Shown piece after piece: positions 20,643 through 33,505 of a stretch of 34,822 nucleotides of DNA. The notes beneath the pieces are model-generated. The model did not search any database. It was not told where the DNA came from and saw nothing but the letters and a program-made list of their open reading frames with translations. The translations under genes and the position numbers were made by a program. Location: the sequence record SRR22947727_475. One strand, 5' to 3'. Within the stretch, counting starts at the first letter, position 1; each line of letters begins with the position of its first letter.

Positions 20643-20733
20643 AAAAAGAGTTTAAGACTTATTGAGACAATTGGTAGAAAAATACTATTTTTTTACCTTG
20701 TTGATTCAGCGAAAAGCTTTTAATTTAAATAAT

Positions 20734-21159
20734 ATGATTAAAAAAATATACATTGCAGGACCACTTTTTAACGTACATGAAAAAAAATACCTTGAAGATA
20801 TAGCAGAAGTTCTAGAGGGTGCTGATTTCGATTGTTTTTTGCCCCATAGAGATCAAACAGGTATAGATCCAGAAGAATTAAAGAATAATGAAATGTCACA
20901 AGAAACTAAAGACATTATTTTTCAAACTGATATTGAAGCTTTGAAAGAAGCTGATTTAATAGTTGCTTTAGTAACCGGTCAAGATATAGATTCAGGAACG
21001 GCATCCGAAATAGGATTTATGTACGCTAGCAACAAACCCGTAATTGCAATTACTGCTGAAGAACGCAGATACAGAAATTTATTTACTGCAGGTATGTTCA
21101 CCAAAACAGTACATAATATCCAAGAAGTATTGTCATCAGTAGAGCAATTTAATTCTTAG
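20734..21159 (+). CDS. Nucleoside 2-deoxyribosyltransferase / nucleotide N-glycosidase family protein
   Basis: IYIAGPLF, FLPHRD, DI..L..AD, DSGTASEIG (catalytic Glu). Start placed at ATG 20734. Confidence 0.87.
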   Translation: MIKKIYIAGPLFNVHEKKYLEDIAEVLEGADFDCFLPHRDQTGIDPEELKNNEMSQETKDIIFQTDIEALKEADLIVALVTGQDIDSGTASEIGFMYASNKPVIAITAEERRYRNLFTAGMFTKTVHNIQEVLSSVEQFNS

Positions 21160-21166
21160 AGAAAGA

Positions 21167-22411
21167 TCAGCCTCTTACCAGTAGATTCTCATAGCCTCTG
21201 ATGCCAAACGCACCAGTTCTTTCTGGTTCTGTTTCTAAAGTTAGATTTTGCTTTAACAGATGTTTGAAGGATACTTCTAATTCCAGTCTTGCTAAGTGAG
21301 CACCAATACAAAAATGAATACCACCACCCCAACTACTGTGGTCTTTATTTTCTCTATTAAAGTTAAGTTCTGAAGGCTTTTCAAAAACTTCAGGATCTCT
21401 ATTGGCTGAGCCAAGTAAGATTGCAACCTTAGATCCTTTAGGAATTTTGTAATCTTCAATTTCAGTATCTTCAAGAACATACCTTTGAAAAAACTGCAAA
21501 GGACTGTCCCACCTAATTAGCTCTTCAACAACATCAGTCATAGTTGAAGATTCTTCGCTTACTTGTTCGTATGTTTTTTGATTTGAAAGCAAACCATAAA
21601 AACCATTTCCAAGTGTATTAACTGTTGCTTCGTGGCCAGCGTTTAAAAGGAGTATTATTGTGCAAATAATTTGATGGTCAGTTAATCGGATATCATTTTC
21701 ACTAACTTGAGATAATCGTGTAATCATGTCGTCTTCAGGATTAATTCTCCTCCTATCCAGTAGATCTTGTGCATAATCAAAAAAATCTTTAGCAGCTTCT
21801 TCAGCATTCTTAGCGTCAACTTCAGTGACTTTGAAATCGTACATCTTAACTATTTTATGAGACCAATCTAAAAATTTCCCATGGTCAGAGGCAGGGACTC
21901 CCAGGAGTTCTCCAATAATACTTATTGAGTATGGCTGTGCATAATCTTTGAGTAAATCAAAGTCTGATCCATTCTTTTCACTCAGCAACTCTAGTGATTT
22001 TTTTTCCATGAAGGGAACAAGTTTTTGAACAGCTCTTGGTAAAAATGCTTTAGCTACAAGACCTCTTAATTCTTTGTGTAACTCTCCTTCAAGGTTTAGA
22101 AGTGAAAATTGTTCTGATTTCCAGAAATAATCATAAGATTCATATTTTTCTGATCTTTTATAACCTACATAAGTTAATGGGACATTGGAGGATTCAACAT
22201 CACTTTCAAAATTTTCTATATGATTATGAGTTGTGCCAAACATTTTACTGGTTTGTATATTTCTCACATCCCTATGTCGAGTCACAAATAATAAATTATT
22301 AATCTCATCCCAAAAAATTGGAGTTTTACTTCTGAATTGGTCAAAAGTCGGATAGGGATTTTTGATAAAGTCTTGATCTTCGGTGGGTAGGTGTAGTTCT
22401 GGAATATTCAT
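21167..22411 (-). CDS. Cytochrome P450
   Basis: I-helix AGHEAT, EELIR (ExxR), GSANRDP, WGGGIHFCIG heme-Cys motif. Confidence 0.95.
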   Translation of the reverse strand: MNIPELHLPTEDQDFIKNPYPTFDQFRSKTPIFWDEINNLLFVTRHRDVRNIQTSKMFGTTHNHIENFESDVESSNVPLTYVGYKRSEKYESYDYFWKSEQFSLLNLEGELHKELRGLVAKAFLPRAVQKLVPFMEKKSLELLSEKNGSDFDLLKDYAQPYSISIIGELLGVPASDHGKFLDWSHKIVKMYDFKVTEVDAKNAEEAAKDFFDYAQDLLDRRRINPEDDMITRLSQVSENDIRLTDHQIICTIILLLNAGHEATVNTLGNGFYGLLSNQKTYEQVSEESSTMTDVVEELIRWDSPLQFFQRYVLEDTEIEDYKIPKGSKVAILLGSANRDPEVFEKPSELNFNRENKDHSSWGGGIHFCIGAHLARLELEVSFKHLLKQNLTLETEPERTGAFGIRGYENLLVRG

Positions 22412-22494
22412 CTTATAATTTTAAATAGTTAGAAGAATGTCTGTCATTAAAAATTATAAAATTTTACAAATTAAAAGCAAGATTTAAAACAAGA

Positions 22495-22503
22495 TGATAT
22501 TAT
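22495..22503 (+). promoter_or_regulatory. Putative extended -10 promoter for the ECF operon
   Basis: TG-A-TATTAT immediately upstream of the hairpin + aptamer leader. Confidence 0.45.
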
Positions 22504-22540
22504 CAAAAACATGCAAACTTAATAATTTAAGTTTTGTAAT

Positions 22541-22577
22541 CGATGTTTAATAGGATAACCTTCGTAAAAAAACCTGG
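22541..22577 (+). ncRNA. preQ1-I-like riboswitch aptamer, copy 1
   Basis: Stem CGAUG/CUUCG (one U-U), loop UUUAAUAGGAUAAC, A-rich tail UAAAAAAACCUGG. Loop UAGG can pair with tail CCUG (H-type pseudoknot). Preceded by hairpin AAACUUAA/UUAAGUUU (22515-22534). Lies about 20 nt before the ECF ATPase. Confidence 0.72.
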
Positions 22578-22598
22578 ATTTTTAAAAAAGGGGTGTAC

Positions 22599-23429
22599 AT
22601 GTCCATTATTAAAATTGAAGATCTTACAGTTCAATATTTAGAACAAGAGGAAAATGCCTTAGATAAAATCTCTCTCGAAGTAGAAGAAGGTGAGTTTGTA
22701 GCTATTCTAGGGGCTCATGGTGCTGGAAAGACAACCCTCTGTTTATCAATAAATGGAATAGTCCCAAATATGATAAATGCTGATATGTTTGGAAAAATAG
22801 AAGTCGCGGGAGAAATTCCACCTAACATTCCAGTCAGAGAGCTTGCAAGCAAAGTTGGGAGTGTTTTTGATAATCCGGAATTTCAAATGAGTCAACTCAC
22901 CGTTTTTGAAGAAGTTGCACTTGGCTTACAAAATCTAGGCGTCGATAAAGACACGATAATTGAAAATATAACGACATCATTAGAATTAGTTGGACTTGCA
23001 GGATTTGAAGAGAGATCACCTTTTGAAATCTCAGGAGGTCAACAGCAAAGACTTGCGATGGCATCAGCTCTTTCAATGAAGCCACAGATTTTGGTACTTG
23101 ATGAGCCAACATCTAATCTTGATCCCATAGGAAAAGAAGAAGTCTTTACAGTAACTAGGAAAATAAACCAGGAAGAAGGATTAACTGTCATAATTGCAGA
23201 ACACGAGGTTGAAGTAATTGCCGAGTATGCAGACAAAGTTATTTTATTAGAACAGGGTAAAATTACCCAAGTAGGGACTCCTGAAGAGCTATTTCCAAAT
23301 ATTGTAGATATCCAAAGTAATGTAGGTGTAAGAATTCCCCAGATTACAGATTTCGCATCACGGGTTCCAGATAAATTTACAGGTAGTATTCCAGTTACTG
23401 TTGACAAAGCTATAGAAAGGTATAACTAA
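22599..23429 (+). CDS. ECF transporter ATPase (A component)
   Basis: GAHGAGKT, VFDNPEFQ, ISGGQQQR, VLDEPTSNLDP. ATG 22599 follows SD AAGGGG. Confidence 0.92.
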   Translation: MSIIKIEDLTVQYLEQEENALDKISLEVEEGEFVAILGAHGAGKTTLCLSINGIVPNMINADMFGKIEVAGEIPPNIPVRELASKVGSVFDNPEFQMSQLTVFEEVALGLQNLGVDKDTIIENITTSLELVGLAGFEERSPFEISGGQQQRLAMASALSMKPQILVLDEPTSNLDPIGKEEVFTVTRKINQEEGLTVIIAEHEVEVIAEYADKVILLEQGKITQVGTPEELFPNIVDIQSNVGVRIPQITDFASRVPDKFTGSIPVTVDKAIERYN

Positions 23430-24238
23430 TGAGTGGAACAGATATTAAATGTATCAAAGTTGGACATACTTACCCAAATGGAGTTCAGGCAATCAAGGAT
23501 GTCGACGTAACAATTAAACAAGGCGAGATAGTATCGGTAGTTGGTCAAAATGGTTCAGGTAAAACGACACTAGTTAAACATTTCAATGGATTACTCAAAC
23601 CAACAGATGGAGACATTACTGTAGGAGATCTCAACACTAGAGATAATCCAGTAGGTTTACTTGCCGAGAGCGTAGGTTATGTATTCCAGAATCCCAATCA
23701 CCAAATATTCGCTGCCTCAGTCCACGAAGAGTTATCTTTTGGTCTGAAAAATATTGGATTGGAAGACTCTGAGATTGAAAAAAAAGTTAAAGAAATAGCA
23801 GAAGAGTTTTTATTAACGGAGTATTTGGAGTTAAATCCCTATCGTCTAGGCTTTTCCCTGAGAAAAACAGTAGGCATGGCATCAATAATAGCTATGGAGC
23901 CTAATGTTGTAATTTTGGATGAACCCACCACAGGTCAGGATTTTTCTGGAGTTAAGACCATTAAAGATTCTATGACAAAGCTTAAAGGTGAAGGAAAAAC
24001 AGTTATAGTTGTTTCTCATGACATGCCATTAGTTGCTGAAGACACAGATAGAGTCCTTGTAATGTGTAATACTGAGTTAATATTTGACGGTCCGCCAGCT
24101 GATTTGTTTATAAATAAACCTATATTAGAAAAGACTAATTTGAAACCTCCTCAAATAACTGCATTTGCCGAGGCCAAAAATTTTGGTAATAATAAAAAAG
24201 CTATACTTTCAGTAGAAGACGCTCTCAAACACGTATAA
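23429..24238 (+). CDS. ECF transporter ATPase (A' component) with degenerate signature motif
   Basis: GQNGSGKT, VFQNPNHQIF, ILDEPTTGQD, VSHD; signature region reads LGFSLRK. TAATG overlap with the A gene. Confidence 0.92.
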   Translation: MSGTDIKCIKVGHTYPNGVQAIKDVDVTIKQGEIVSVVGQNGSGKTTLVKHFNGLLKPTDGDITVGDLNTRDNPVGLLAESVGYVFQNPNHQIFAASVHEELSFGLKNIGLEDSEIEKKVKEIAEEFLLTEYLELNPYRLGFSLRKTVGMASIIAMEPNVVILDEPTTGQDFSGVKTIKDSMTKLKGEGKTVIVVSHDMPLVAEDTDRVLVMCNTELIFDGPPADLFINKPILEKTNLKPPQITAFAEAKNFGNNKKAILSVEDALKHV

Positions 24239-24378
24239 GAAATTAAATTAAAGAAATCAAGTTAAATTGAAGAAAAGATACATCTCTTTGTGCAAAGTTG
24301 GTTTTAATTTTGTAAAATTAACTTGTATTTAAAAATGTTTAAACTTTCTCCTTCGAGTTTGTAAAACGTATTTAGATA

Positions 24379-24414
24379 ACGATGTTTATTAGGTAACCAC
24401 CGTAAAAAAACCTG
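24379..24414 (+). ncRNA. preQ1-I-like riboswitch aptamer, copy 2 (first of a tandem pair)
   Basis: Stem ACGAUG/CACCGU (one A-C), loop UUUAUUAGGUAAC, tail AAAAAAACCUG; UAGG/CCUG pseudoknot. Very similar to copy 1. Confidence 0.75.
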
Positions 24415-24451
24415 ACGGTGTTTGTAAAGGTTCCACCGTAAAAAAAACTAA
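24415..24451 (+). ncRNA. preQ1-I-like riboswitch aptamer, copy 3 (second of a tandem pair)
   Basis: Perfect stem ACGGUG/CACCGU, loop UUUGUAAAGGUUC, tail AAAAAAAACUAA resembling the classic preQ1-I 3' tail. Confidence 0.72.
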
Positions 24452-24489
24452 TTTATATTAAAAAAATATAAAAATAGAAGGGGGGATTT

Positions 24490-25179
24490 GTGAAAGACCA
24501 AGATACTTCACAAAGACTAAGCAGCGCTACAGGCGGCGGTGTTCCATTAACTTACGTGATTGCGTTAGTACCAGTTGCTTCCGTTTTGAACGTAATTGGA
24601 GGAACCGTAGCTGGTGCGCTTAAATTACCCATATTCCTAGATATGATCGGAACAGCAGTAGTTGCTATGACGATCGGTCCTTGGTGGGGAGCACTTGTTG
24701 GAGTTATAACTAACGTAACAAGCGGGTTCATTACTGGACCAGTATCAATTCCATTTGCAGCGTGTAACGTTGTTGGAGCATTGATTTGGGGATATGGAAC
24801 TAAATGGGGTTGGGCAAATGACAAGCTAAAATTCTTTGGATTGTCAGTGGCTTCAGCCGTAGGCGTTTCGTTAATGGCAGCACCAATAGTTATATTTGTG
24901 TTCGGAGGTGCAACAGGTCACGCATCTGATGTTCTTACTGCAGGTTTAATTGCAGCAGGAGGAGATATGTGGACTTCAGTATTCTCAAGTAACATAATTG
25001 TTTCTTCAGCTGATAAAATTCTTTCGTCATTCTTGGCGTTAGCAATAATTGGAGCACTACCTACTAATTTGCAGGTAACTGGACCAATTATGAAAGCTGA
25101 AAACATGGGTAAAGCTGTCTTGATTACAGCAGGTACAGTTGTAGGAGTCATTCTTACAGTCGTATCTATGAACCTATAG
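24490..25179 (+). CDS. ECF transporter S component, QrtT/STY3230-like (queuosine-regulated ECF type)
   Basis: LNVIGG..LKLPIFLDMIGT..GPWWGALVG..TN..FGGATG..D..ADKIL matches my recollection of the QrtT family. Has an extra C-terminal TM. GTG start after SD GAAGGGGGGA. Confidence 0.82.
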   Translation: MKDQDTSQRLSSATGGGVPLTYVIALVPVASVLNVIGGTVAGALKLPIFLDMIGTAVVAMTIGPWWGALVGVITNVTSGFITGPVSIPFAACNVVGALIWGYGTKWGWANDKLKFFGLSVASAVGVSLMAAPIVIFVFGGATGHASDVLTAGLIAAGGDMWTSVFSSNIIVSSADKILSSFLALAIIGALPTNLQVTGPIMKAENMGKAVLITAGTVVGVILTVVSMNL

Positions 25180-25191
25180 GAGGTAGATAGT

Positions 25192-25383
25192 ATGAGAGAA
25201 GTAACATCTAAAGATGGTCTTGGTGCTGGTATTGTCGGCCTTGGTGTAATGTATATGGTTTATCCATATGCAGCGTCGGAGTTAGCTCCGGATGCATCAT
25301 TCGGAACACTAGCAGGAATGTGCTTAGTAGCTGGTTTCCTCACAGTATTGTGTGGAATAGCTGTTATTAGATTCAAAGACTAA
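25192..25383 (+). CDS. 63-aa two-TM small membrane protein in the ECF operon
   Basis: Strong SD AGGAGGT; two Gly-rich hydrophobic helices; tight spacing to both neighbours. Confidence 0.75.
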   Translation: MREVTSKDGLGAGIVGLGVMYMVYPYAASELAPDASFGTLAGMCLVAGFLTVLCGIAVIRFKD

Positions 25384-25399
25384 AAGAAAGTATTTAATT

Positions 25400-26140
25400 A
25401 TGTTCGACAATAAAGTTGAGCAGGTTAAACACTTACCCTTGAAGATCGACGAGGTTGCCCGGTATGTAATAGTACCGGGCGATCCAAACAGGGTTGAAAT
25501 TATTGCTTCGGTTTTTGACGAATATAAACTCCAGGGAAGCAATAGAGAGTTTAACGCTGCAAGAGGAACTTATAAAGGTACAGATGTATCTGTAGTTTCA
25601 ACAGGAATAGGATGTCCATCAACAGCCATTGCAGTTGAAGAGTTAGCTTATATCGGCGCAGAGGTCTTTGTTAGAATTGGCACTTCTGGATCCGTTGACA
25701 ACTCAGTAAAAAAAGGAGATATTTTCATTGCTACAGGTGCAGTTAGAGATGACGGCACTTCTAAACAATACATACCAATAGAATTTCCAGCAATAGCCGA
25801 CTTTGAATTGGTAACAAACTTAATAAAAGCAGCAAAAGATTTAAATATTAAATCTAAGGTTGGAATTTGTCAGTCAAAGGATTCATTTTTTGGAGAGGTT
25901 GAGCCAGAAAGAATGCCAGTTGCACCCTATCTAGATAACAAATGGAAAGCTTGGCAAAAAGGAGGAGTTGGTGCGTCTGAAATGGAGGCAGCCACTTTAT
26001 TTACGGTAGCCCAAATAAGGAAATTAAAAGCTGGAGCAGTATTAGCTGTAGAAGTTTCAGATGAGGAAACTGTAAAAAAAATGACAAAAATTGTTTTAGA
26101 ATGTATAAATATTATGGAAAGGGATAGAAGAAATGAGTAA
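25400..26140 (+). CDS. Nucleoside phosphorylase (NP-I, uridine-phosphorylase-like), paralogue 1
   Basis: VPGDPNRV, NREF, STGIGCPSTAIAVEEL, RIGTSG, SKDSFFGE, SEMEAA. Confidence 0.9.
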   Translation: MFDNKVEQVKHLPLKIDEVARYVIVPGDPNRVEIIASVFDEYKLQGSNREFNAARGTYKGTDVSVVSTGIGCPSTAIAVEELAYIGAEVFVRIGTSGSVDNSVKKGDIFIATGAVRDDGTSKQYIPIEFPAIADFELVTNLIKAAKDLNIKSKVGICQSKDSFFGEVEPERMPVAPYLDNKWKAWQKGGVGASEMEAATLFTVAQIRKLKAGAVLAVEVSDEETVKKMTKIVLECINIMERDRRNE

Positions 26141-26924
26141 AAAAGAAAAAGGCGGTCTTTTAAAAAGCGAAATTCAATATCACATTCAAATGAAAAAAGG
26201 TGATGTTGCAGATTTCGTTATATTACCTGGTGACCCTGGAAGAGTCGAGTTTATTGCCGATCACTTTGATACAGCAAAAGTTGTTGCTGATAACAGGGAA
26301 TATAAGACAATGACTGGAAAGTATAAAGGAAGATCTATCTCAGTAACATCAACAGGAATAGGCTGTCCTTCAACAGCTATTGCGGTTGAGGAGTTGGCAA
26401 ACATAGGTGCGAAAACATTTGTAAGGATGGGAACGTCTGGCGCAATGCAAGACTTCACAAGAGTAGGAGATAAAGTTATTGCTACAGGTGCTGTTAGGTT
26501 TGAGGGAACGTCAGTTCAATATATGCCAATAGAATTTCCTGCTGTGGCCTCTCACGAAATGGTAACAGCGTTGGTTCGCTCAGCATCTGATGCTAAATTA
26601 AATTATCACACTGGAATAGTTCAATCTAAAGATTCTTTTTATGGACAACATAGTCCAGAAGATATGCCTATAGCTCAAGAATTATTACAAAAATGGGATG
26701 CTTGGGTAAAAGGTGGAGTCCTCTGTTCGGAGATGGAAGCAGCTACTTTATTTGTAGTTGGATCATATAGAAAACTTCGTACAGGTGCGGTTTTATTAGT
26801 TGCTGGAGACCAAGCAAAAGGAGAGTCTTTAACAAAAGAAGATTATCAGCAAAATATGACAGAATCAATAAACATGATATTAGAAGCAAGTTTGGATATA
26901 GAGGAGGAAAGTAGTAATGGCTAG
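26133..26924 (+). CDS. Nucleoside phosphorylase (NP-I, uridine-phosphorylase-like), paralogue 2
   Basis: LPGDPGRV, NREY, STGIGCPSTAIAVEEL, RMGTSG, SKDSFYGQH, SEMEAA; 8-nt overlap with paralogue 1. Confidence 0.92.
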   Translation: MSKKEKGGLLKSEIQYHIQMKKGDVADFVILPGDPGRVEFIADHFDTAKVVADNREYKTMTGKYKGRSISVTSTGIGCPSTAIAVEELANIGAKTFVRMGTSGAMQDFTRVGDKVIATGAVRFEGTSVQYMPIEFPAVASHEMVTALVRSASDAKLNYHTGIVQSKDSFYGQHSPEDMPIAQELLQKWDAWVKGGVLCSEMEAATLFVVGSYRKLRTGAVLLVAGDQAKGESLTKEDYQQNMTESINMILEASLDIEEESSNG

Positions 26925-27816
26925 AGTACCTGTAGGAGCTTATGTTCCAGGAGATTCATTTTTCCATAAAGCACACCCATTTGTTAAATTTTACTGGGTT
27001 CTTTCATTTGTATTTTTTTGTTTCTTGAATAAGAATCCGTACATAAATTATGCATTGACTGCTATAGGATTAATTTTTGTCGTTCTTGCAAAAACTTTTC
27101 CCAGCTACATAAGATCAATGGTTATATTTGGACCAGCTGCTTTTGCTATGATTTTCTTGCAGTCTATTGTACCCCCTGCAGTTTTTGATAACCCCCAGTA
27201 CTTGGCAGATTTAGGACCCTTTTCACTCTATACAGAGTCAATAATTTATGGAATGGTGTTTAGTAGTAGAATTTTGTGTATTTGTACTTGGTCTATATTG
27301 ATGCTGATGACTCTGCATCCCGGAGAACTATCATCAGCGCTTCAGAGAGCCAAGGTACCATACACCGTAAACTTTATGATTACCACGACTCTGCAGTTAA
27401 TTCCTATCCTTCAAAGGGAATTTGGAATAATTTTATCTGCTCAGAAGTCAAGAGCAATGAAAGCTCAAGGATTTAAAGCATTACTACCAAGTATCATTCC
27501 TGTTTTTGCCGGTGCTATTGATAGAGTTCAGCAATTATCTATGAGTTTAGAGACAAGAGCATTTGGATCAGAGAATGAAAGAACTCTCTTGAGATACAAA
27601 ACATTTACAAGCAAAGAAATTGCTCTATCAATTGCAGCTTTAGTTCCAGTTGGTTTAAGCATTTATGGAAGGATTAGTTTAAATGGTTTTGCACCTAGCG
27701 GGGGATTTACGTTATCCCCACAAGTAGGAGTATTCCTTGTTGGGTTTTGTGGTCTTGCATTTCTTTCAATAATCTTTGGTGCTGGAATAGCGATAAGACT
27801 TTTTGGCAAAAAGTAA
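26917..27816 (+). CDS. ECF transporter transmembrane T component
   Basis: YVPGDSFFHKAHP.VK and two coupling Arg motifs (AQKSRA, LETRAF). Confidence 0.92.
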   Translation: MARVPVGAYVPGDSFFHKAHPFVKFYWVLSFVFFCFLNKNPYINYALTAIGLIFVVLAKTFPSYIRSMVIFGPAAFAMIFLQSIVPPAVFDNPQYLADLGPFSLYTESIIYGMVFSSRILCICTWSILMLMTLHPGELSSALQRAKVPYTVNFMITTTLQLIPILQREFGIILSAQKSRAMKAQGFKALLPSIIPVFAGAIDRVQQLSMSLETRAFGSENERTLLRYKTFTSKEIALSIAALVPVGLSIYGRISLNGFAPSGGFTLSPQVGVFLVGFCGLAFLSIIFGAGIAIRLFGKK

Positions 27817-27825
27817 TAAACTTAA

Positions 27826-29100
27826 TTGATTAATACTCAAGATTTTATTAAAAAAAATTATGTATTCAATTACTGTATGTTCATATTTGATGCAATCGGA
27901 TTTGGATCAGCGTTTGCATTATTAATTCCAGGAAGTTATTTGCCAGATGTAGCAATAGCTATTTCTGACAAATGGTATACACCTTCATTAATTGTAATTA
28001 TTTTTTATGCGGTAGGTATTTTTTCACAATTTCTCACATCTGCAAGAAGAAATAAAGAGCAAGACTCAAAAAGAGGAGTCATTTTCTGGGGTATTTGCGA
28101 GAGAATTGGAATAATTGTTTTAGCCTTAACTTTAAGCAGCTATTCAAAAACTGATATGGGATTTATTTTTTTTGTTGTAGCGTATATAGTTTTTGTATTT
28201 AGCGCTGGTGCAATTCTTCCTTCATATTTTGACCTTGTTTCTCGTGTACTTTATAAATTTCGATCGGTATTTTTTGCATTAAATTTAACTTTTGGCTCCG
28301 CTGCAGGCTATTTAGTTTCTAGATATGTTGATTTTAAAATATTAGAAAACGGCTTAATAGAAGGTTATTTATCCGGACTAATTCTGGTAATAGCTGTTAC
28401 CTCTCTCTCTATGATCCCTCTTTTCTTAATTCGAGAACCTCAAACGGGTAATAAGCCTACAACAAAACTTTCAATAACCTCATTAAGTGCTCAGATAAAG
28501 GTGTGGAAAGAAACTTATAAAAATAATGTAGGTTTGAATGCGGTCTCCTTATCTAACTTTTTTAGTGCCGTACCAGAGGCGATTACTCCATTTTTTAGTA
28601 TTTGGTTAATTAGTTTTCACAACATACCAACAAACAGATTAGGTATGTGGGTGACATTTTTATTATTAAGTCAAAGCATTGGAAGCTTCTTCGTTCCAAT
28701 TATAGGGATCAAAATTGGCTTCAAGTACACATACATACTTGGGCTAGGCATGCACTTTATAGCTAGCGCAATATTTATTCTTACAGATTCAACTTTTCAG
28801 AATCTGATATTTATATTTGCAGGTCTTGGACTTGGGATCTTTAACACCTCGCAAAGTAACTTAGCTGTAGAGTTGGGAGATGTTGGAGATGCCGGCAACA
28901 CTAACGCAATGCTTACTGCTTTCAGAGTTCCAATCTTTATCTCGGTTCCATTATTAGTTGGTTTTTTTAACTCAAGTAGTTCCATTTTTTTAATTTTATT
29001 ATTTTCAATGAGTTCAGCAATCATTGGTATCTTGATAGTCGCTTTTAAATTAACAGATCCTGTTCTACCAAAAGTTAGATTTTGGCTCAAAGATTCTTAA
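27826..29100 (+). CDS. MFS-type transporter
   Basis: 424 aa, about 12 hydrophobic segments in two halves; TTG start 9 nt after ecfT. Confidence 0.78.
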   Translation: MINTQDFIKKNYVFNYCMFIFDAIGFGSAFALLIPGSYLPDVAIAISDKWYTPSLIVIIFYAVGIFSQFLTSARRNKEQDSKRGVIFWGICERIGIIVLALTLSSYSKTDMGFIFFVVAYIVFVFSAGAILPSYFDLVSRVLYKFRSVFFALNLTFGSAAGYLVSRYVDFKILENGLIEGYLSGLILVIAVTSLSMIPLFLIREPQTGNKPTTKLSITSLSAQIKVWKETYKNNVGLNAVSLSNFFSAVPEAITPFFSIWLISFHNIPTNRLGMWVTFLLLSQSIGSFFVPIIGIKIGFKYTYILGLGMHFIASAIFILTDSTFQNLIFIFAGLGLGIFNTSQSNLAVELGDVGDAGNTNAMLTAFRVPIFISVPLLVGFFNSSSSIFLILLFSMSSAIIGILIVAFKLTDPVLPKVRFWLKDS

Positions 29101-29375: not shown

Positions 29376-30248
29376 TTAAGCCTTATAAGAAGACTGAGTT
29401 CCAGTTCTTGTAACCGAATCGCTTGCTTTTTGTATTCCCAGAGATATTGATTCCTCTGGTGACTCTCCTGAAGCTAGTCCAAAAGCAAAAGCACCAACAA
29501 AAGCATCACCAGCTCCAGTTGTATCAATAGCAGTAACATGCGGAGCTGATATTTTTACCACAGAATTTTCCGAAACCAATGCAGCTCCATTTTCTCCAAG
29601 AGTAACAATTAAATTAGATGAAATTGTATTGGCATAGGAGATTAAGTTTTCATCGTTATAAGCATCCATTCCAGTAATTGTTGAAAACTCAACCTCATTT
29701 GGTACAAACCAATCTGTTAATTGCAGTAATTCATCTGAGGGAATTTTTGCTGGTGCTGGGTTGAGAATTGTTGTAATGTCATTATTTTTTGCAACGGAAA
29801 ACACTTCCTGAGTAACACTCATAGGTATTTCAAATTGGCCAATTAATACATTCAAATTTCCTATTTCTAAAAGTGAAGATGCAGCTTTTTTTGCATCAAT
29901 TTTATCATTTGCTCCAGAGACTACAATTATTCTATTTTGTCCGGACTGGTCAACCCAAATTGGTGCGACACCACTTGAACCATCTACTCTTTGAATATGT
30001 TCTACATTTACACCACATTTGATGTAATTATCAATTGTCATATCTGCATAAACATCATCACCAAGGCATGTAATCATGAAAGTTTCAGCACCTAACAGTC
30101 CAGCCATTACAGCTTGATTGGCACCCTTACCACCAAAACCCATTTGATAAGAATTACCAAAAACAGTTTCTCCGTCTGACGGTATTGTTTCTACGTAGGA
30201 AATTTGGTCAATATTGGAGCTTCCAACTACACATATTTTAGGATTCAT
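29376..30248 (-). CDS. rbsK: Ribokinase (PfkB family)
   Basis: VVGSSNID, GGKGANQA, GQNRI, NPAPA, PNEVE, VTLGENG, DTTGAGDAF. Second ATG (30248) lies 6 nt after a TATAAT. Confidence 0.9.
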   Translation of the reverse strand: MNPKICVVGSSNIDQISYVETIPSDGETVFGNSYQMGFGGKGANQAVMAGLLGAETFMITCLGDDVYADMTIDNYIKCGVNVEHIQRVDGSSGVAPIWVDQSGQNRIIVVSGANDKIDAKKAASSLLEIGNLNVLIGQFEIPMSVTQEVFSVAKNNDITTILNPAPAKIPSDELLQLTDWFVPNEVEFSTITGMDAYNDENLISYANTISSNLIVTLGENGAALVSENSVVKISAPHVTAIDTTGAGDAFVGAFAFGLASGESPEESISLGIQKASDSVTRTGTQSSYKA

Positions 30249-30251
30249 CAT

Positions 30252-30297: not shown

Positions 30298-31281
30298 ATG
30301 GATATTGACTGGGATGCAAGAGTATTAAGTTCCCTTGATCCTGTTGTCAGCAACCTTAAAGAAGTCCAAATAAATAATCAGGAAATTGAAAATGTTGCTG
30401 ATTGGCTTGCATATGAAGAATTTCCCTCGCCTGAAAATAATAAAACACAAAAAAATCCTGAGGAAGTAATTAGAACAACACTTCTTATAAATACTCTTAA
30501 TTTTGCATTTACTGATTTTGAAAAAAGTGTTAAATATGAAATTGAACGTGATGGTTATATTTTTTCAGATAGTGAGGCTATGTTTACACAAATAAATGAG
30601 GCACTTGCATCTGGCGTAAAGCTTTATGATGGTGAGGTACTTTCATCTTTAGACATGGACAAATTGAATAAAATATTTTCTGGAAATATTGAAATGCCAA
30701 TGATGAATGAGAGGTTGGAAATATTAAATGAAGTCGGAGAAAAATTATCCTCTGAATATAAAGGGGATTGGATTAACTTTATAAATCAAGGCCCCAAGAA
30801 ATTGTACAGTAATGGCGAGGGTTTAATTGAAAGATTAATTACAGAATTTCCAAGATTTGATGATAAGACAATCCTTGAAGATGGACATGAAGTTCATTTT
30901 TATAAATTAGCTCAATTGGCTTTTTGGGGAATTCATGGAGAACTTTCTGGAGCAGGCCATTTTGTGGTTGAAGATATGCATAAAATGAGTGCATTTGCAG
31001 ATTACATTGTCCCTGTTGCCCTAGAAGTAATGAAAATTATTACATATTCAGAAGCATTAAATAATAAAATCATGAATGGTGAGATTATAGAGAGGGATTC
31101 ACAAGAAGAGGTTGAAATTAGAGCTGTGAGTTTATACACAACAGCAAAGCTTACTGAAGAAGTTAATAAAAGAAGACCATTAGACAAACAAATAATAATC
31201 CCTCAACTCGATTACAGATTATGGAAACAATATCATGCTACACATAGACCTCATCACCTAACAGTTACAACGATGTACTAA
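30298..31281 (+). CDS. qng1: Queuosine-nucleotide N-glycosylase/hydrolase (Qng1, DUF2419, Q_salvage)
   Basis: LNFAF, FPRFDD, FYKLAQL, FADYIVP (catalytic Asp), EVEIRA, LDYRLW, C-terminal PHH.T.T.Y. Confidence 0.9.
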   Translation: MDIDWDARVLSSLDPVVSNLKEVQINNQEIENVADWLAYEEFPSPENNKTQKNPEEVIRTTLLINTLNFAFTDFEKSVKYEIERDGYIFSDSEAMFTQINEALASGVKLYDGEVLSSLDMDKLNKIFSGNIEMPMMNERLEILNEVGEKLSSEYKGDWINFINQGPKKLYSNGEGLIERLITEFPRFDDKTILEDGHEVHFYKLAQLAFWGIHGELSGAGHFVVEDMHKMSAFADYIVPVALEVMKIITYSEALNNKIMNGEIIERDSQEEVEIRAVSLYTTAKLTEEVNKRRPLDKQIIIPQLDYRLWKQYHATHRPHHLTVTTMY

Positions 31282-31282
31282 T

Positions 31283-32269
31283 TTGAAAAAGTTTATTATA
31301 GACGCAGATACAGGCTCAGATGATGCTGTAGCTATATTATTAGCACTCCAAGATCCTTCAATCGAAATTTTGGGAATATCAGTCGTATCAGGAAATGTTC
31401 CATTACAACAAGGAATTAAAAATACTATTTCAACAATGGACATGACTGGAAAAAAAGTAAAAGTATTTGCTGGTGCGGATAAGCCACTAACAAGAGAGTA
31501 CGAAGAGGTATATGTACTAGAGAAATTTATGGATCATGTTAAATCATTAAAATCTAGCTCTGCAAGTGGTCAGTGTGTTCATGGTATAGACGGAATGGGT
31601 GATATAGGTATAGAGTCTTCGACAGAAGAGTATGAAGAGAAAAATGCAATAGACTTCATAATAGATACAGTTAATGAAAATCCTAATGAGGTAACACTTG
31701 TAACTCTTGGGCCACTAACAAATATAGCTCTAGCAATACAAAAAGATTCATCAATATCAAAAAAAATAAAACATTGTTATGTAATGGGAGGCACCTCTGA
31801 TGGGACAGGTAATGTATCAGCTGCAGCAGAATATAACATCTGGGTGGACCCAGAAGCTGCAAAAATATGCTTTGATTCAGGCATGAATATAACAATGGTG
31901 GGTTGGGACAATTCCTATAAATACGCGATGCTTAAAGAAGAGGAGATTGAAGATTTGAGATCTCTAAACAGTAAGCTAGCTGATTTTTCAGTTGATATTC
32001 AAAAAACACTAATTGACCTAACTTTTACAACCTACGGCTTTCATGGATTTGACTTACCTGATCCCATCACTATGGCTATTGCTTTAGATAATTCAATTAT
32101 TGAAGACTCTGAGCAGTTACACGTAATAGTCGACACTAGAGATGGTATTACTAGAGGACAAACAATAGTTGATTATTTTAACGTAGAAGAAAAAAATCAG
32201 AACATAAGAGTTGTAACAAAGTCAGATAAAGATAAATTTATGAATTTATTAACAAAATCTTTAAAGTAA
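31283..32269 (+). CDS. Nucleoside hydrolase (IU-NH family)
   Basis: DADTGSDDAVA, SGNV, VHGIDG, LGPLTNIA, MGG, AEYNIWVDPEAA, LPDP; starts 1 nt after the qng1 stop. Confidence 0.93.
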   Translation: MKKFIIDADTGSDDAVAILLALQDPSIEILGISVVSGNVPLQQGIKNTISTMDMTGKKVKVFAGADKPLTREYEEVYVLEKFMDHVKSLKSSSASGQCVHGIDGMGDIGIESSTEEYEEKNAIDFIIDTVNENPNEVTLVTLGPLTNIALAIQKDSSISKKIKHCYVMGGTSDGTGNVSAAAEYNIWVDPEAAKICFDSGMNITMVGWDNSYKYAMLKEEEIEDLRSLNSKLADFSVDIQKTLIDLTFTTYGFHGFDLPDPITMAIALDNSIIEDSEQLHVIVDTRDGITRGQTIVDYFNVEEKNQNIRVVTKSDKDKFMNLLTKSLK

Positions 32270-32314: not shown

Positions 32315-33505
32315 GTGCTTAAAGAATCCACTTACAAAACTCTCATAAGCCTTAAAGGTGCAAAAAATCTAATATTTTTTGGATACCTTGGGAGAGCTCC
32401 TTATGCAATGCTCCAAGTGGGTATGGTCATATTTGGAAACTACAAGACTGGTTCTTATGCAGTAGGTGGTGCTATGGCAGCTGGATTCAGCATTTCCAAT
32501 GCTTTAATCCAACCAGTAAATGGCAGATTAGTTGATAAAATTGGCCAAAGAAAAGTTGTAAGTTTTTTACTTGCTGGATTTATCATGACTTCTTTACTCG
32601 TAACCATTGGGGAGTTCGAAAGAGATTTAATCTACATTGTGTTATCAGTTTTTCTAGGAGTTACAGTTCCAAACATTGGAGCATATACGAGAAGAAACTG
32701 GAAAGTAATAACTGAAGAAGCAGACAATCAAAAAGTTCAGGCAATAGAATCTTCAATAGATGAGCTCAACTTTCTAGTAGGTCCATCTGTTTTTGCCACT
32801 GTATCAAACTACTTAAATCCTATAATTGCACTTTATATAGCAATCGTGAGTTCAATAGTGGGAACAATTGGAGTAGTGTTTTCAAGGTCAATTGAAGTTA
32901 CGAACCATCAAAGTCTTAATAATGATAAGACATCTATATGGATTTCAAAAAATAAACTACCTTTATTAACAACGTTAATCTTTGTAGGTGCTTGTTTAAG
33001 TTCAATTTCTGTTTATGTTGTCGCAAAAGAAGATATAGAGAATATTAAAAACCTGACAGCCTTTTATTATTTAATTAATGGCTCAACAGCGCTACTTAGT
33101 GCATTATTTTATGGATATTATTTCAGCAACACGAAGAATTTGAACAAGTACAATATTGTATTTGTCTACCTAGCAATATCAGTTTCTACTTTTTTCTTTT
33201 TCAATACCAAGAATCTAATTTTATCGGCTGGTTTACTAAGCGGTTTCGGTATAGGTCCAATATTTTTACTTGCAAACAGTTATGTGTCAAACGTTACAAA
33301 AAGTAGTACTTTAACGGAGGCTTATTCTTGGCTAGCCAGCTCTGTAGGATTTGGAATCGCCCTAGGTTCTAGTCTTTTTGGTTATGTAATCGAGTCCTAT
33401 TCACTCAGTAGTGCAAAAAATCTTTTCTTAATATTTACGATTATCCCACTTTTTCTTTTACCATTCAATAAGGGATGGCATGCTAAAGAAAAAATTAAAT
33501 CATAA
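32315..33505 (+). CDS. MFS transporter
   Basis: GRLVDKIGQR (motif A), ES.IDE.NF.VGP, TEAYSW; about 12 TM segments. Confidence 0.85.
   Translation: MLKESTYKTLISLKGAKNLIFFGYLGRAPYAMLQVGMVIFGNYKTGSYAVGGAMAAGFSISNALIQPVNGRLVDKIGQRKVVSFLLAGFIMTSLLVTIGEFERDLIYIVLSVFLGVTVPNIGAYTRRNWKVITEEADNQKVQAIESSIDELNFLVGPSVFATVSNYLNPIIALYIAIVSSIVGTIGVVFSRSIEVTNHQSLNNDKTSIWISKNKLPLLTTLIFVGACLSSISVYVVAKEDIENIKNLTAFYYLINGSTALLSALFYGYYFSNTKNLNKYNIVFVYLAISVSTFFFFNTKNLILSAGLLSGFGIGPIFLLANSYVSNVTKSSTLTEAYSWLASSVGFGIALGSSLFGYVIESYSLSSAKNLFLIFTIIPLFLLPFNKGWHAKEKIKS

Follow-up and report, generated by a model that had tools for sequence, protein, structure and literature searches.

An ECF importer operon with three leader units

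The 34,822-nucleotide stretch of record SRR22947727_475 analysed here (the window; 35% G+C) comes from a small, abundant, uncultured and genome-streamlined marine actinobacterium and includes an operon for an energy-coupling factor (ECF) importer, in the leaders of which lie three copies of a short, putative RNA element, here called units 1 to 3. All features lie on the plus strand unless stated otherwise. Unit 1 (22541–22577) occupies the leader of ecfA (22593–23429; Pfam ABC_tran, E 1e-24), the likely start of which is ATG at 22600, given the Shine-Dalgarno spacing and the sequence of the nearest genome, G001; ecfA' (23429–24238; ABC_tran, E 9e-24) follows. Unit 2 (24379–24414) and unit 3 (24415–24451) form a tandem pair in the leader of the gene for the S component (24490–25179; PF12822, ECF_trnsprt, 26.4 bits, below cut-off). 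This placement, at the operon head and again internally, agrees with an initial annotation, made from the sequence alone, that read the units as variants of the prequeuosine-1 (preQ1) riboswitch aptamer of the preQ1-I kind.

Unit 1 reads CGAUG, a 14-nt loop UUUAAUAGGAUAAC, CUUCG and U-A7-CCUG. Its first stem (P1) pairs 22541–22545 with 22560–22564 and holds one U-U mismatch, the loop (22546–22559) begins UU and ends in C22559, the tail comprises U22565 and seven adenines (22566–22572), and a second helix (P2) would join UAGG in the loop (22551–22554) to CCUG after the A-tract (22573–22576). Unit 2 (CGAUG, UUUAUUAGGUAAC, CACCG, U-A7-CCUG), the first of the tandem pair, has P1 at 24380–24384 with 24398–24402 (one A-C mismatch, plus A24379-U24403), a loop at 24385–24397 with C24397 at its end, A7 at 24404–24410 and P2 between UAGG (24390–24393) and CCUG (24411–24414). 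Unit 3 (CGGUG, UUUGUAAAGGUUC, CACCG, U-A8-CUAA), the last ahead of the S gene, has a perfect P1 (24416–24420 with 24434–24438, plus A24415-U24439), a loop at 24421–24433 that ends UC, A8 at 24440–24447 and a minimal P2 of AG (24428–24429) with CU (24448–24449). The loop-terminal base is C in all three units (AAC, AAC and UUC), and the loop end UAAC resembles that of the Thermoanaerobacter tengcongensis aptamer. The motif and the stem mismatches, which are confined to units 1 (U-U) and 2 (A-C), are as first described.

The three units are real. The pattern TGTTT-N7-11-CNNCGTAAAAAAA matches at these three sites in the 34.8-kb window, always on the plus strand, and has no match in any of 100 dinucleotide-preserving shuffles. 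A first covariance model (R1) scored unit 2 at 58.8 bits, while a broader model (R2), built from 71 unique relatives, returned only the three units when run unfiltered over the whole window: unit 2 at 56.3 bits, unit 1 at 50.4 bits and unit 3 at 19.7 bits, the last only partly reported because of its overlap with unit 2. The next-best match scored 13.2 bits (E 0.22).

Searches with Rfam left the units unannotated. The whole window had no match at gathering score, and the 2.1-kb region 22400–24520 had none at E ≤ 10. Against RF00522, the preQ1-I model (gathering score 39 bits), unit 1 gave no match at E ≤ 10 in an 81-nt search, unit 2 was absent from the report of a 111-nt search at the same threshold, and the best score, that of unit 3, was 14.8 bits. 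Across five related genomes, no RF00522 match reached the cut-off and the units were not among the matches at E ≤ 1; a gathering-score search of 20 related and distant loci found nothing. Standard models thus miss the units, as had been suspected, and the Rfam run that had been proposed as a check gave no strong match, so that novelty is not removed by that route. By curated score the units are non-members of RF00522; by architecture and hallmark nucleotides, as read from their sequences, they are preQ1-I-like.

Downstream of the S gene, the operon continues with a 63-codon frame without family match (25192–25383), two uridine-phosphorylase-like paralogues (25400–26140 and 26133–26924; PNP_UDP_1, E 3.5e-40 and 5.5e-39), ecfT (26917–27816; CbiQ, E 1.7e-24) and, at its end, a major facilitator superfamily (MFS) transporter (27826–29100; MFS_1, 24.3 bits, below cut-off). 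A ribokinase-like gene on the minus strand (29376–30251; TIGR02152, 295.2 bits against a cut-off of 299.65) separates this operon from the next, which encodes a Qng1-type queuosine salvage protein (30298–31281; PF10343, E 6.8e-51), a nucleoside hydrolase of the inosine-uridine type (31283–32269; PF01156, E 1.8e-89) and a further MFS transporter (32315–33505; MFS_1, E 3.3e-24). Upstream of unit 1, Pfam identifies a nucleoside 2-deoxyribosyltransferase-like gene (20662–21159) and a cytochrome P450 on the minus strand (21167–22411), divergent from the ecfA leader.

Covariation and distribution among relatives

Relatives were taken from one close genome (G001), seven other genomes of the genus and 80 metagenome loci, the last retrieved by searching metagenome contigs with the S-component protein. 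A regular-expression parse yielded 151 matches, of which 23 gene-internal look-alikes (three or fewer P1 pairs, or a different first base) were dropped, leaving 128 units with 71 unique sequences and 67 unique cores.

Among the 71 unique units, 83.7% of the cells in paired columns can pair, against 76.9% in shuffles, none of 500 shuffles reaching the observed value; if the pairing partner is slid along the alignment, only 14–54% of cells pair. Within P1, pair 4-26 is AU in 43 sequences and GC in 28 and is never unpaired, and pair 5-25 is AU in 48, GC in 11 and something else in 12; within P2, pair 14-41 is AU in 19, UA in 17, UG in 15, CG in two, GU in two and other in 16. The longest loop-tail helix averages 5.03 bp when a loop is matched with its own tail and 4.50 bp when it is matched with the tails of other units (the own-tail average is reached in 0 of 2,000 permutations). 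Distant relatives have CAAUG/CAUUG in P1 in place of the window's CGGUG/CACCG, and P2 changes in step from UAGG/CCUG to AAGG/CCUU, UUAGG/CCUAA, AAAAGG/CCUUUU, AUUGGG/CCCAAU and AAGGA/UCCUU. Covariation of both P1 and the loop-to-tail P2 supports a predicted H-type pseudoknot. Since the sequences are related and the P1 types few, the figures overstate the number of independent events, yet the direction of the predicted covariation is clear for both helices despite kinship. The preQ1-I-like architecture first proposed (P1, loop-to-tail P2 and A-rich tail) is thereby borne out in the relatives: modelled from orthologous leaders, both stem and pseudoknot covary, and the lack of covariation that would have spoken against it was not seen.

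The two uridines after the P1 5′ strand are invariant (71/71), as are the A-run columns, or nearly so. In the 67 unique cores the loop ends with C in 53, U in nine and G in five; several of the cores ending in U or G have an extended P1, and it is possible that the register is shifted in them, with the C of the top G-C pair serving instead. Loops span 10–15 nt and the loop-tail helix 3–8 bp, P2 being typically 4–5 bp. The dinucleotide ahead of the P1 3′ strand is AC in units 1 and 2 and most relatives, and UC, together with a tail C, in unit 3 and in the last units of arrays in the window's lineage. All units of an array have one P1 sequence in common (24398–24420 in the window; likewise in L001, L150, L156 and L159), so each P1 3′ strand could pair without mismatch with the P1 5′ strand of the unit that follows. 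In 12 unique sequences, P1 of the first array unit is itself interrupted by an A-C mismatch, and inter-unit hairpins in a shifted register may therefore compete with the aptamers.

Unit number varies with position. Leaders of ecfA always hold one unit (29 loci), while S leaders hold one, two, three, four or five in 26, 16, two, three and three loci respectively, so that 24 of the 50 unit-bearing S leaders are tandem, the window having two. In G001 (1.1 Mb), where the locus is 83% identical to the window, an identical unit 1 precedes ecfA and four head-to-tail units precede the S gene, with neighbouring copies identical. The bin G034 has two unit-bearing copies of the ECF operon, on contigs C38 and C53, and three PF10343 matches, which may reflect a true duplication or the mixing of two strains in the bin.

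All 91 R1 matches lie on the gene strand. Of 65 genomes of the order searched with R2, five gave strong matches, and these were confined to ecfA and S leaders; two weak matches (28.2 bits in G026 and 26.2 bits in G071) look like chance on inspection. There was no R2 match in 150 other genomes drawn from the phylum and no R1 match in 24 other genomes of the class. A pattern scan across genome contigs matched at least 120 stretches, and among the matches listed, which include Candidatus Actinomarina contigs, the true units are only those of L079 (two sites), L087 and L138; three other listed sites with five of five P1 pairs look like chance. The output of a looser unit finder, far too permissive in A+T-rich DNA, was not used. 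These results make the units most likely a divergent and lineage-restricted subtype of the preQ1-I riboswitch, a putative assignment.

Many of the listed scan matches (L027–L146) are one nearly fixed sequence with one or two of five P1 pairs, present in dozens of Clostridia, Selenomonadales and other records among those listed; it is probably a conserved coding motif.

S leaders without a unit occur in three S-bearing genomes of the genus and about a dozen metagenome loci. Seven of them (L193 1830–1990, L196, L197, L199, L201, L202 and L233) have a CA(U/A)CGCAUG box in common and also share a hairpin, (G/A)AAUAUC...GAUAUU(C/U), with one compensatory pair; box and hairpin may be a different regulatory element of the same importer. 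Another box, UCAUUGGGUGGAGGAUA, lies about 20–60 nt upstream of the units or the S gene in L171, L172, L187, L189 and L194; it is conserved ahead of the units in one clade and is present in a unit-free leader too.

Queuosine context, transcripts and leader folds

The PF10343 gene and the nucleoside hydrolase lie 5 kb downstream. PF10343 is found in 38 of 64 genus genomes and in all eight that hold the S gene, in six of which it is 5–6 kb from the S gene on the same contig. An S homologue with 51% identity is found beside PF10343, nucleoside hydrolase, MFS and PNP_UDP_1 genes on L226, a G+C-rich contig of unrelated origin. The units stand in leaders of an ECF importer, a candidate importer of queuosine precursors, within a queuosine-salvage island, and the queuosine context is stronger than the initial annotation could know, in that the PF10343 gene (30298–31281) adjoins the nucleoside hydrolase. 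Two of its other suggestions fared less well. It had pointed to QrtT/QueT transporters; the S protein has no match to PF06177 (QueT), nor is there one in five related genomes, and it scores 109.5 bits against the NCBIfam CD3073 family, below the cut-off of 180. It had also supposed that the neighbouring enzymes release queuine; both paralogues are closest to uridine phosphorylases (TIGR01718, 263 and 296 bits; best PDB match of both 3qpb, titled uridine phosphorylase) and not to known queuosine hydrolases.

In four of the five related genomes checked, tgt and queA are side by side. No queF, yhhQ, queT or QueH was found in these five, nor a full-length queC (only N-terminal partial PP-loop matches), and QueG had weak matches in two. 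The relatives' tgt, with queA adjacent, carries a GGLAIGE motif with a bulky isoleucine, which, by comparison with Val233 in Zymomonas against Gly in eukaryotes, marks a preQ1-type pocket; given that isoleucine and the adjoining queA, the base that the cell inserts appears to be preQ1. The tgt of G002 (L014 1501–2544, minus strand) has Leu where Thermotoga maritima and the second-listed chains in the alignment have Cys (the D-x-C position), and this, together with the Ile of GGLAIGE, may make for an unusual pocket.

The cytochrome P450 keeps its position in G001 and in L171 (72% identical there). It is a conserved neighbour (L001 4364–5608; L171 707–1957), and the S protein of the L171 lineage is 92% identical. 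As P450s perform N-dealkylations, and QueL is oxygen-sensitive, the neighbouring P450 could trim queuine to preQ1 in place of QueL, which is pure speculation.

A group of distant operons (L214, L216, L218, L220 and L223) has the order S-ecfAA'T-PNP_UDP_1 with a divergent GntR/UTRA regulator and a URO-D-like gene, and their leaders carry a near-palindrome, ACGUAUAUAGACGUC; the pairing of near-palindrome and regulator suggests protein rather than RNA control there.

In eight runs on record as RNA, 72–83% of the stretch's sampled words are present. RNA contigs cross the units; one metatranscriptome contig begins at 22542, in the first bases of unit 1, and in three runs of one study the S gene has about 10 times the contig depth of ecfA-ecfA'. 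Metatranscriptome contigs give neither transcript ends nor levels; the contig start and the depth step hint only weakly at two promoters, whose transcripts would begin with the aptamers. Contig breaks at 24440 fall at the A-run and are assembly artefacts. In the window and two relatives, scans for promoters and terminators did no better than shuffles.

The leader of single-unit relatives folds into the aptamer, a middle hairpin abutting P2 and a further hairpin in which both the Shine-Dalgarno sequence and the start codon are buried (z −2.0 to −3.3). For these leaders we also considered pairing by eye of the A-tail with the U-run of the Shine-Dalgarno-sequestering hairpin and rejected it, finding only five A-U pairs. 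In the window, the minimum free energy (MFE) fold of the S leader, which is not significant (z 0.47 against shuffles), predicts an A+U-rich hairpin at 24448–24477, past the last unit and ahead of the Shine-Dalgarno sequence; its base (CUA/UAG) shares the CU of the unit 3 P2 3′ strand. In the same fold, unit 2 contributes its P1 3′ strand to a perfect helix with the P1 5′ strand of unit 3, and the 3′ half of the last unit pairs with the Shine-Dalgarno run.

A candidate preQ1-I-type sensor and its relation to known systems

The preQ1-I aptamer is the smallest riboswitch aptamer known. On balance, we consider it probable that the units are preQ1-I-type aptamers, predicted from sequence to sense preQ1 or a close 7-deazaguanine and to control the ECF importer. 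Each would be a minimal H-type pseudoknot with a P1 of 5–7 bp, in which the first two uridines and the last cytosine of the loop would line the ligand pocket, P2 would form between (N)AGG of the loop and (N)CCU after the A-tract, and the A-rich tail would lie in the P1 groove. Placed in the 5′ leaders of what would be two transcripts of one importer operon, one unit before ecfA-ecfA' and a pair before the S gene, they would bind preQ1 or a very close 7-deazaguanine and reduce expression of the importer where that base is in ample supply, much as queT and qrtT are controlled by preQ1 riboswitches. We infer ligand binding, ligand identity, this OFF sense and the platform, OFF with preQ1 being by analogy the most likely sense and an ON switch for queuine or queuosine its main rival. 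As for the platform, a downstream hairpin would sequester the Shine-Dalgarno sequence in single-unit relatives, while in the window's lineage the aptamer P1 stems would compete with inter-unit hairpins, and P2 with the A+U hairpin. Ligand-dependent formation of the pseudoknot, proposed because of the single-unit hairpins and the suggestive MFE competitions in the window, would reposition the competing strands.

Several observations weigh against this assignment. Within the window, P1 is 5 bp long and has a mismatch in unit 1 and another in unit 2, unit 3 reaches only an E of 0.54 with RF00522 (111-nt search) even though the model is aligned end to end, and the leaders fold no better than shuffles (z 0.5–0.8, under a fold model without pseudoknots). 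Among relatives, P1 varies between essentially two or three stem types with few independent changes, the loop ends in U or G rather than C in 14 of 67 cores, and unit-free leaders of other lineages front S orthologues with 88–89% protein identity, so the element is dispensable. The wider context is mixed as well: the operon's enzymes resemble uridine phosphorylases; the S gene is present in only eight of 64 genus genomes; tgt and queA occur in its absence in G010 and G012, so the importer is not the general preQ1 route of the genus; and other distant S homologues lack PF10343 and have as neighbours GntR regulators, URO-D-like genes, or ribose uptake and nucleoside hydrolase genes.

Of the alternatives, one that we regard as unlikely, though credible, keeps fold and role and makes queuine or queuosine the ligand, so that the imported nucleoside or its base would govern how it is itself taken up and broken down, perhaps through an ON switch. 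The island would release queuine, with the Qng1-type gene and nucleoside hydrolase 5 kb downstream, the importer is paired with two nucleoside phosphorylase-like enzymes, S-family relatives sit with nucleoside hydrolase and ribose genes, L1 (the first loop segment) and P2 are longer than in the canonical types, and in the S-leader MFE fold a ligand-driven P1 would free the Shine-Dalgarno sequence from the last unit's 3′ half. That fold, however, is not significant (z 0.47), the GGLAIGE isoleucine and adjoining queA speak for insertion of preQ1, the hallmark UU, C and A-tract are those given for preQ1 binders in a review (PMC11625349), and the literature searched holds no queuine-sensing RNA, hence no precedent. 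A more elaborate version, which we think very doubtful, takes the head-to-tail arrays of up to five units as a register-shifting, cooperative queuine/queuosine sensor that turns ON a new queuosine importer: each P1 3′ strand would pair with the next unit's P1 5′ strand in the absence of ligand and return to the aptamer register in its presence, and a new ECF S family would act with phosphorylase-like enzymes that free queuine and perhaps with a P450 trimming it to preQ1. A retuning of the same pseudoknot to an ordinary purine or nucleoside such as guanine, in a general nucleoside-scavenging importer, strikes us as highly improbable. It would suit a gene set that is mostly generic salvage (uridine-phosphorylase-like, ribokinase, nucleoside hydrolase and deoxyribosyltransferase genes), an S homologue in G142 (43% identical) that has ribose uptake and nucleoside hydrolase genes beside it and no PF10343, and the U or G at some loop ends, which could mean that other bases are read; PF10343 is nevertheless linked to the S gene in two unrelated lineages, and all three window units keep the C and UU of preQ1 binders.

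The units may also have no small-molecule ligand at all, being a protein site, a translation or stability element or a tolerated amplified repeat. Their number shifts fast, from one to five, with identical neighbours in G001, some orthologous leaders have none, and Rfam scores are poor and P1 mismatches present, all of which would fit. We still judge such an element decidedly unlikely: the loop-tail P2 covaries, which a hairpin-loop protein site would not require, the units occur only in these two leaders and always in the sense strand, and conservation falls on the positions that contact the ligand in preQ1-I. As the protein, CsrA, a binder of GGA loops, was considered and rejected, as it is found in none of five unit-bearing genomes. 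Chance similarity has a negligible claim, even in intergenic DNA of a window with 35% G+C where A-runs are common, and is refuted by the shuffle test, in which not one of 100 shuffles had even a single match, and by covariation, with compensatory changes across dozens of loci.

Taking the units, then, as putative preQ1-I-type aptamers, they can be set beside the three types distinguished in a 2024 review (PMC11625349). In type I, UU follows the P1 5′ strand, UC precedes the 3′ strand and the tail holds a C; type II has AC before the P1 3′ strand; and type III combines UU with AC and has a Shine-Dalgarno AAGG in the P2 3′ strand. Compared with all three, the units have a longer L1 and a longer P2 with its purine strand in the loop. 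Type II (T. tengcongensis, Bacillus subtilis queC) is alike in its H-type pseudoknot, 5-bp P1 and A-rich tail, in the AC that units 1 and 2 and most relatives have ahead of the P1 3′ strand, and in its place in leaders of queuosine-related transport genes (PMC11625349). The units differ from type II in their invariant UU after P1, a loop of 10–15 nt with longer L1, a P2 of typically 4–5 bp formed by loop AGG and tail CCU, scores of at most 14.8 bits on RF00522, and tandem arrays. Type I, of which Carnobacterium antarcticum (two stacked preQ1) is an example, shares UU, UC and the tail C with unit 3 and the last array units (PMC11625349). Unit 3 is also the one that RF00522 aligned, although well below cut-off and at the end of an array whose upstream members are of the AC kind. 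Type III (Escherichia coli), reported almost only from Pseudomonadota in that account, is alike in having UU after P1 and AC at the specificity position; its P2, however, joins a pyrimidine-rich loop to a Shine-Dalgarno AAGG carried in the tail (PMC11625349), a polarity that the units reverse, and their real Shine-Dalgarno sequence lies 9–30 nt downstream.

At the level of the operon, the closest parallel is queK-qrtT-queL of Clostridioides difficile, in which a riboswitch precedes an ECF S component and enzymes that free the queuosine base (PMC11477304). Here, in contrast, the S component is not QueT or QrtT, the enzymes are phosphorylase-like and of the Qng1 type rather than QueK and QueL, and a separate unit precedes the ATPase genes. 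Tandem riboswitches, among them glycine and c-di-GMP-I, likewise place several aptamers of the same kind in one leader; unlike them, the present units follow one another directly, as many as five in a row, with neither spacer nor expression platform in between. In the literature searched (supplementary tables aside), neither tandem preQ1-I arrays nor a queuine-sensing RNA is reported, nor an Actinomarina riboswitch at this locus or the CD3073 S family. Table 3 of a 2022 survey places PreQ1-I among the classes not found in tandem (PMC9481103), so that a preQ1-I-like class in spacer-free arrays of up to five would depart from the pattern surveyed there, and leaders with one to five units offer a natural series in which aptamer number could be set against dose response and cooperativity. 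Work on queuosine salvage states a gap in the known precursor transporters (PMC11130926). The organisms studied here keep tgt and queA yet are without every known precursor transporter, and the units flag an uncharacterised, CD3073-like S family and the two uridine-phosphorylase-like enzymes as candidates for the uptake and processing of queuosine precursors. What sets this locus apart from the systems described before is, on the sequence evidence, the array architecture, a putative subtype outside the curated model and a pointer to a candidate uptake system for queuosine precursors.

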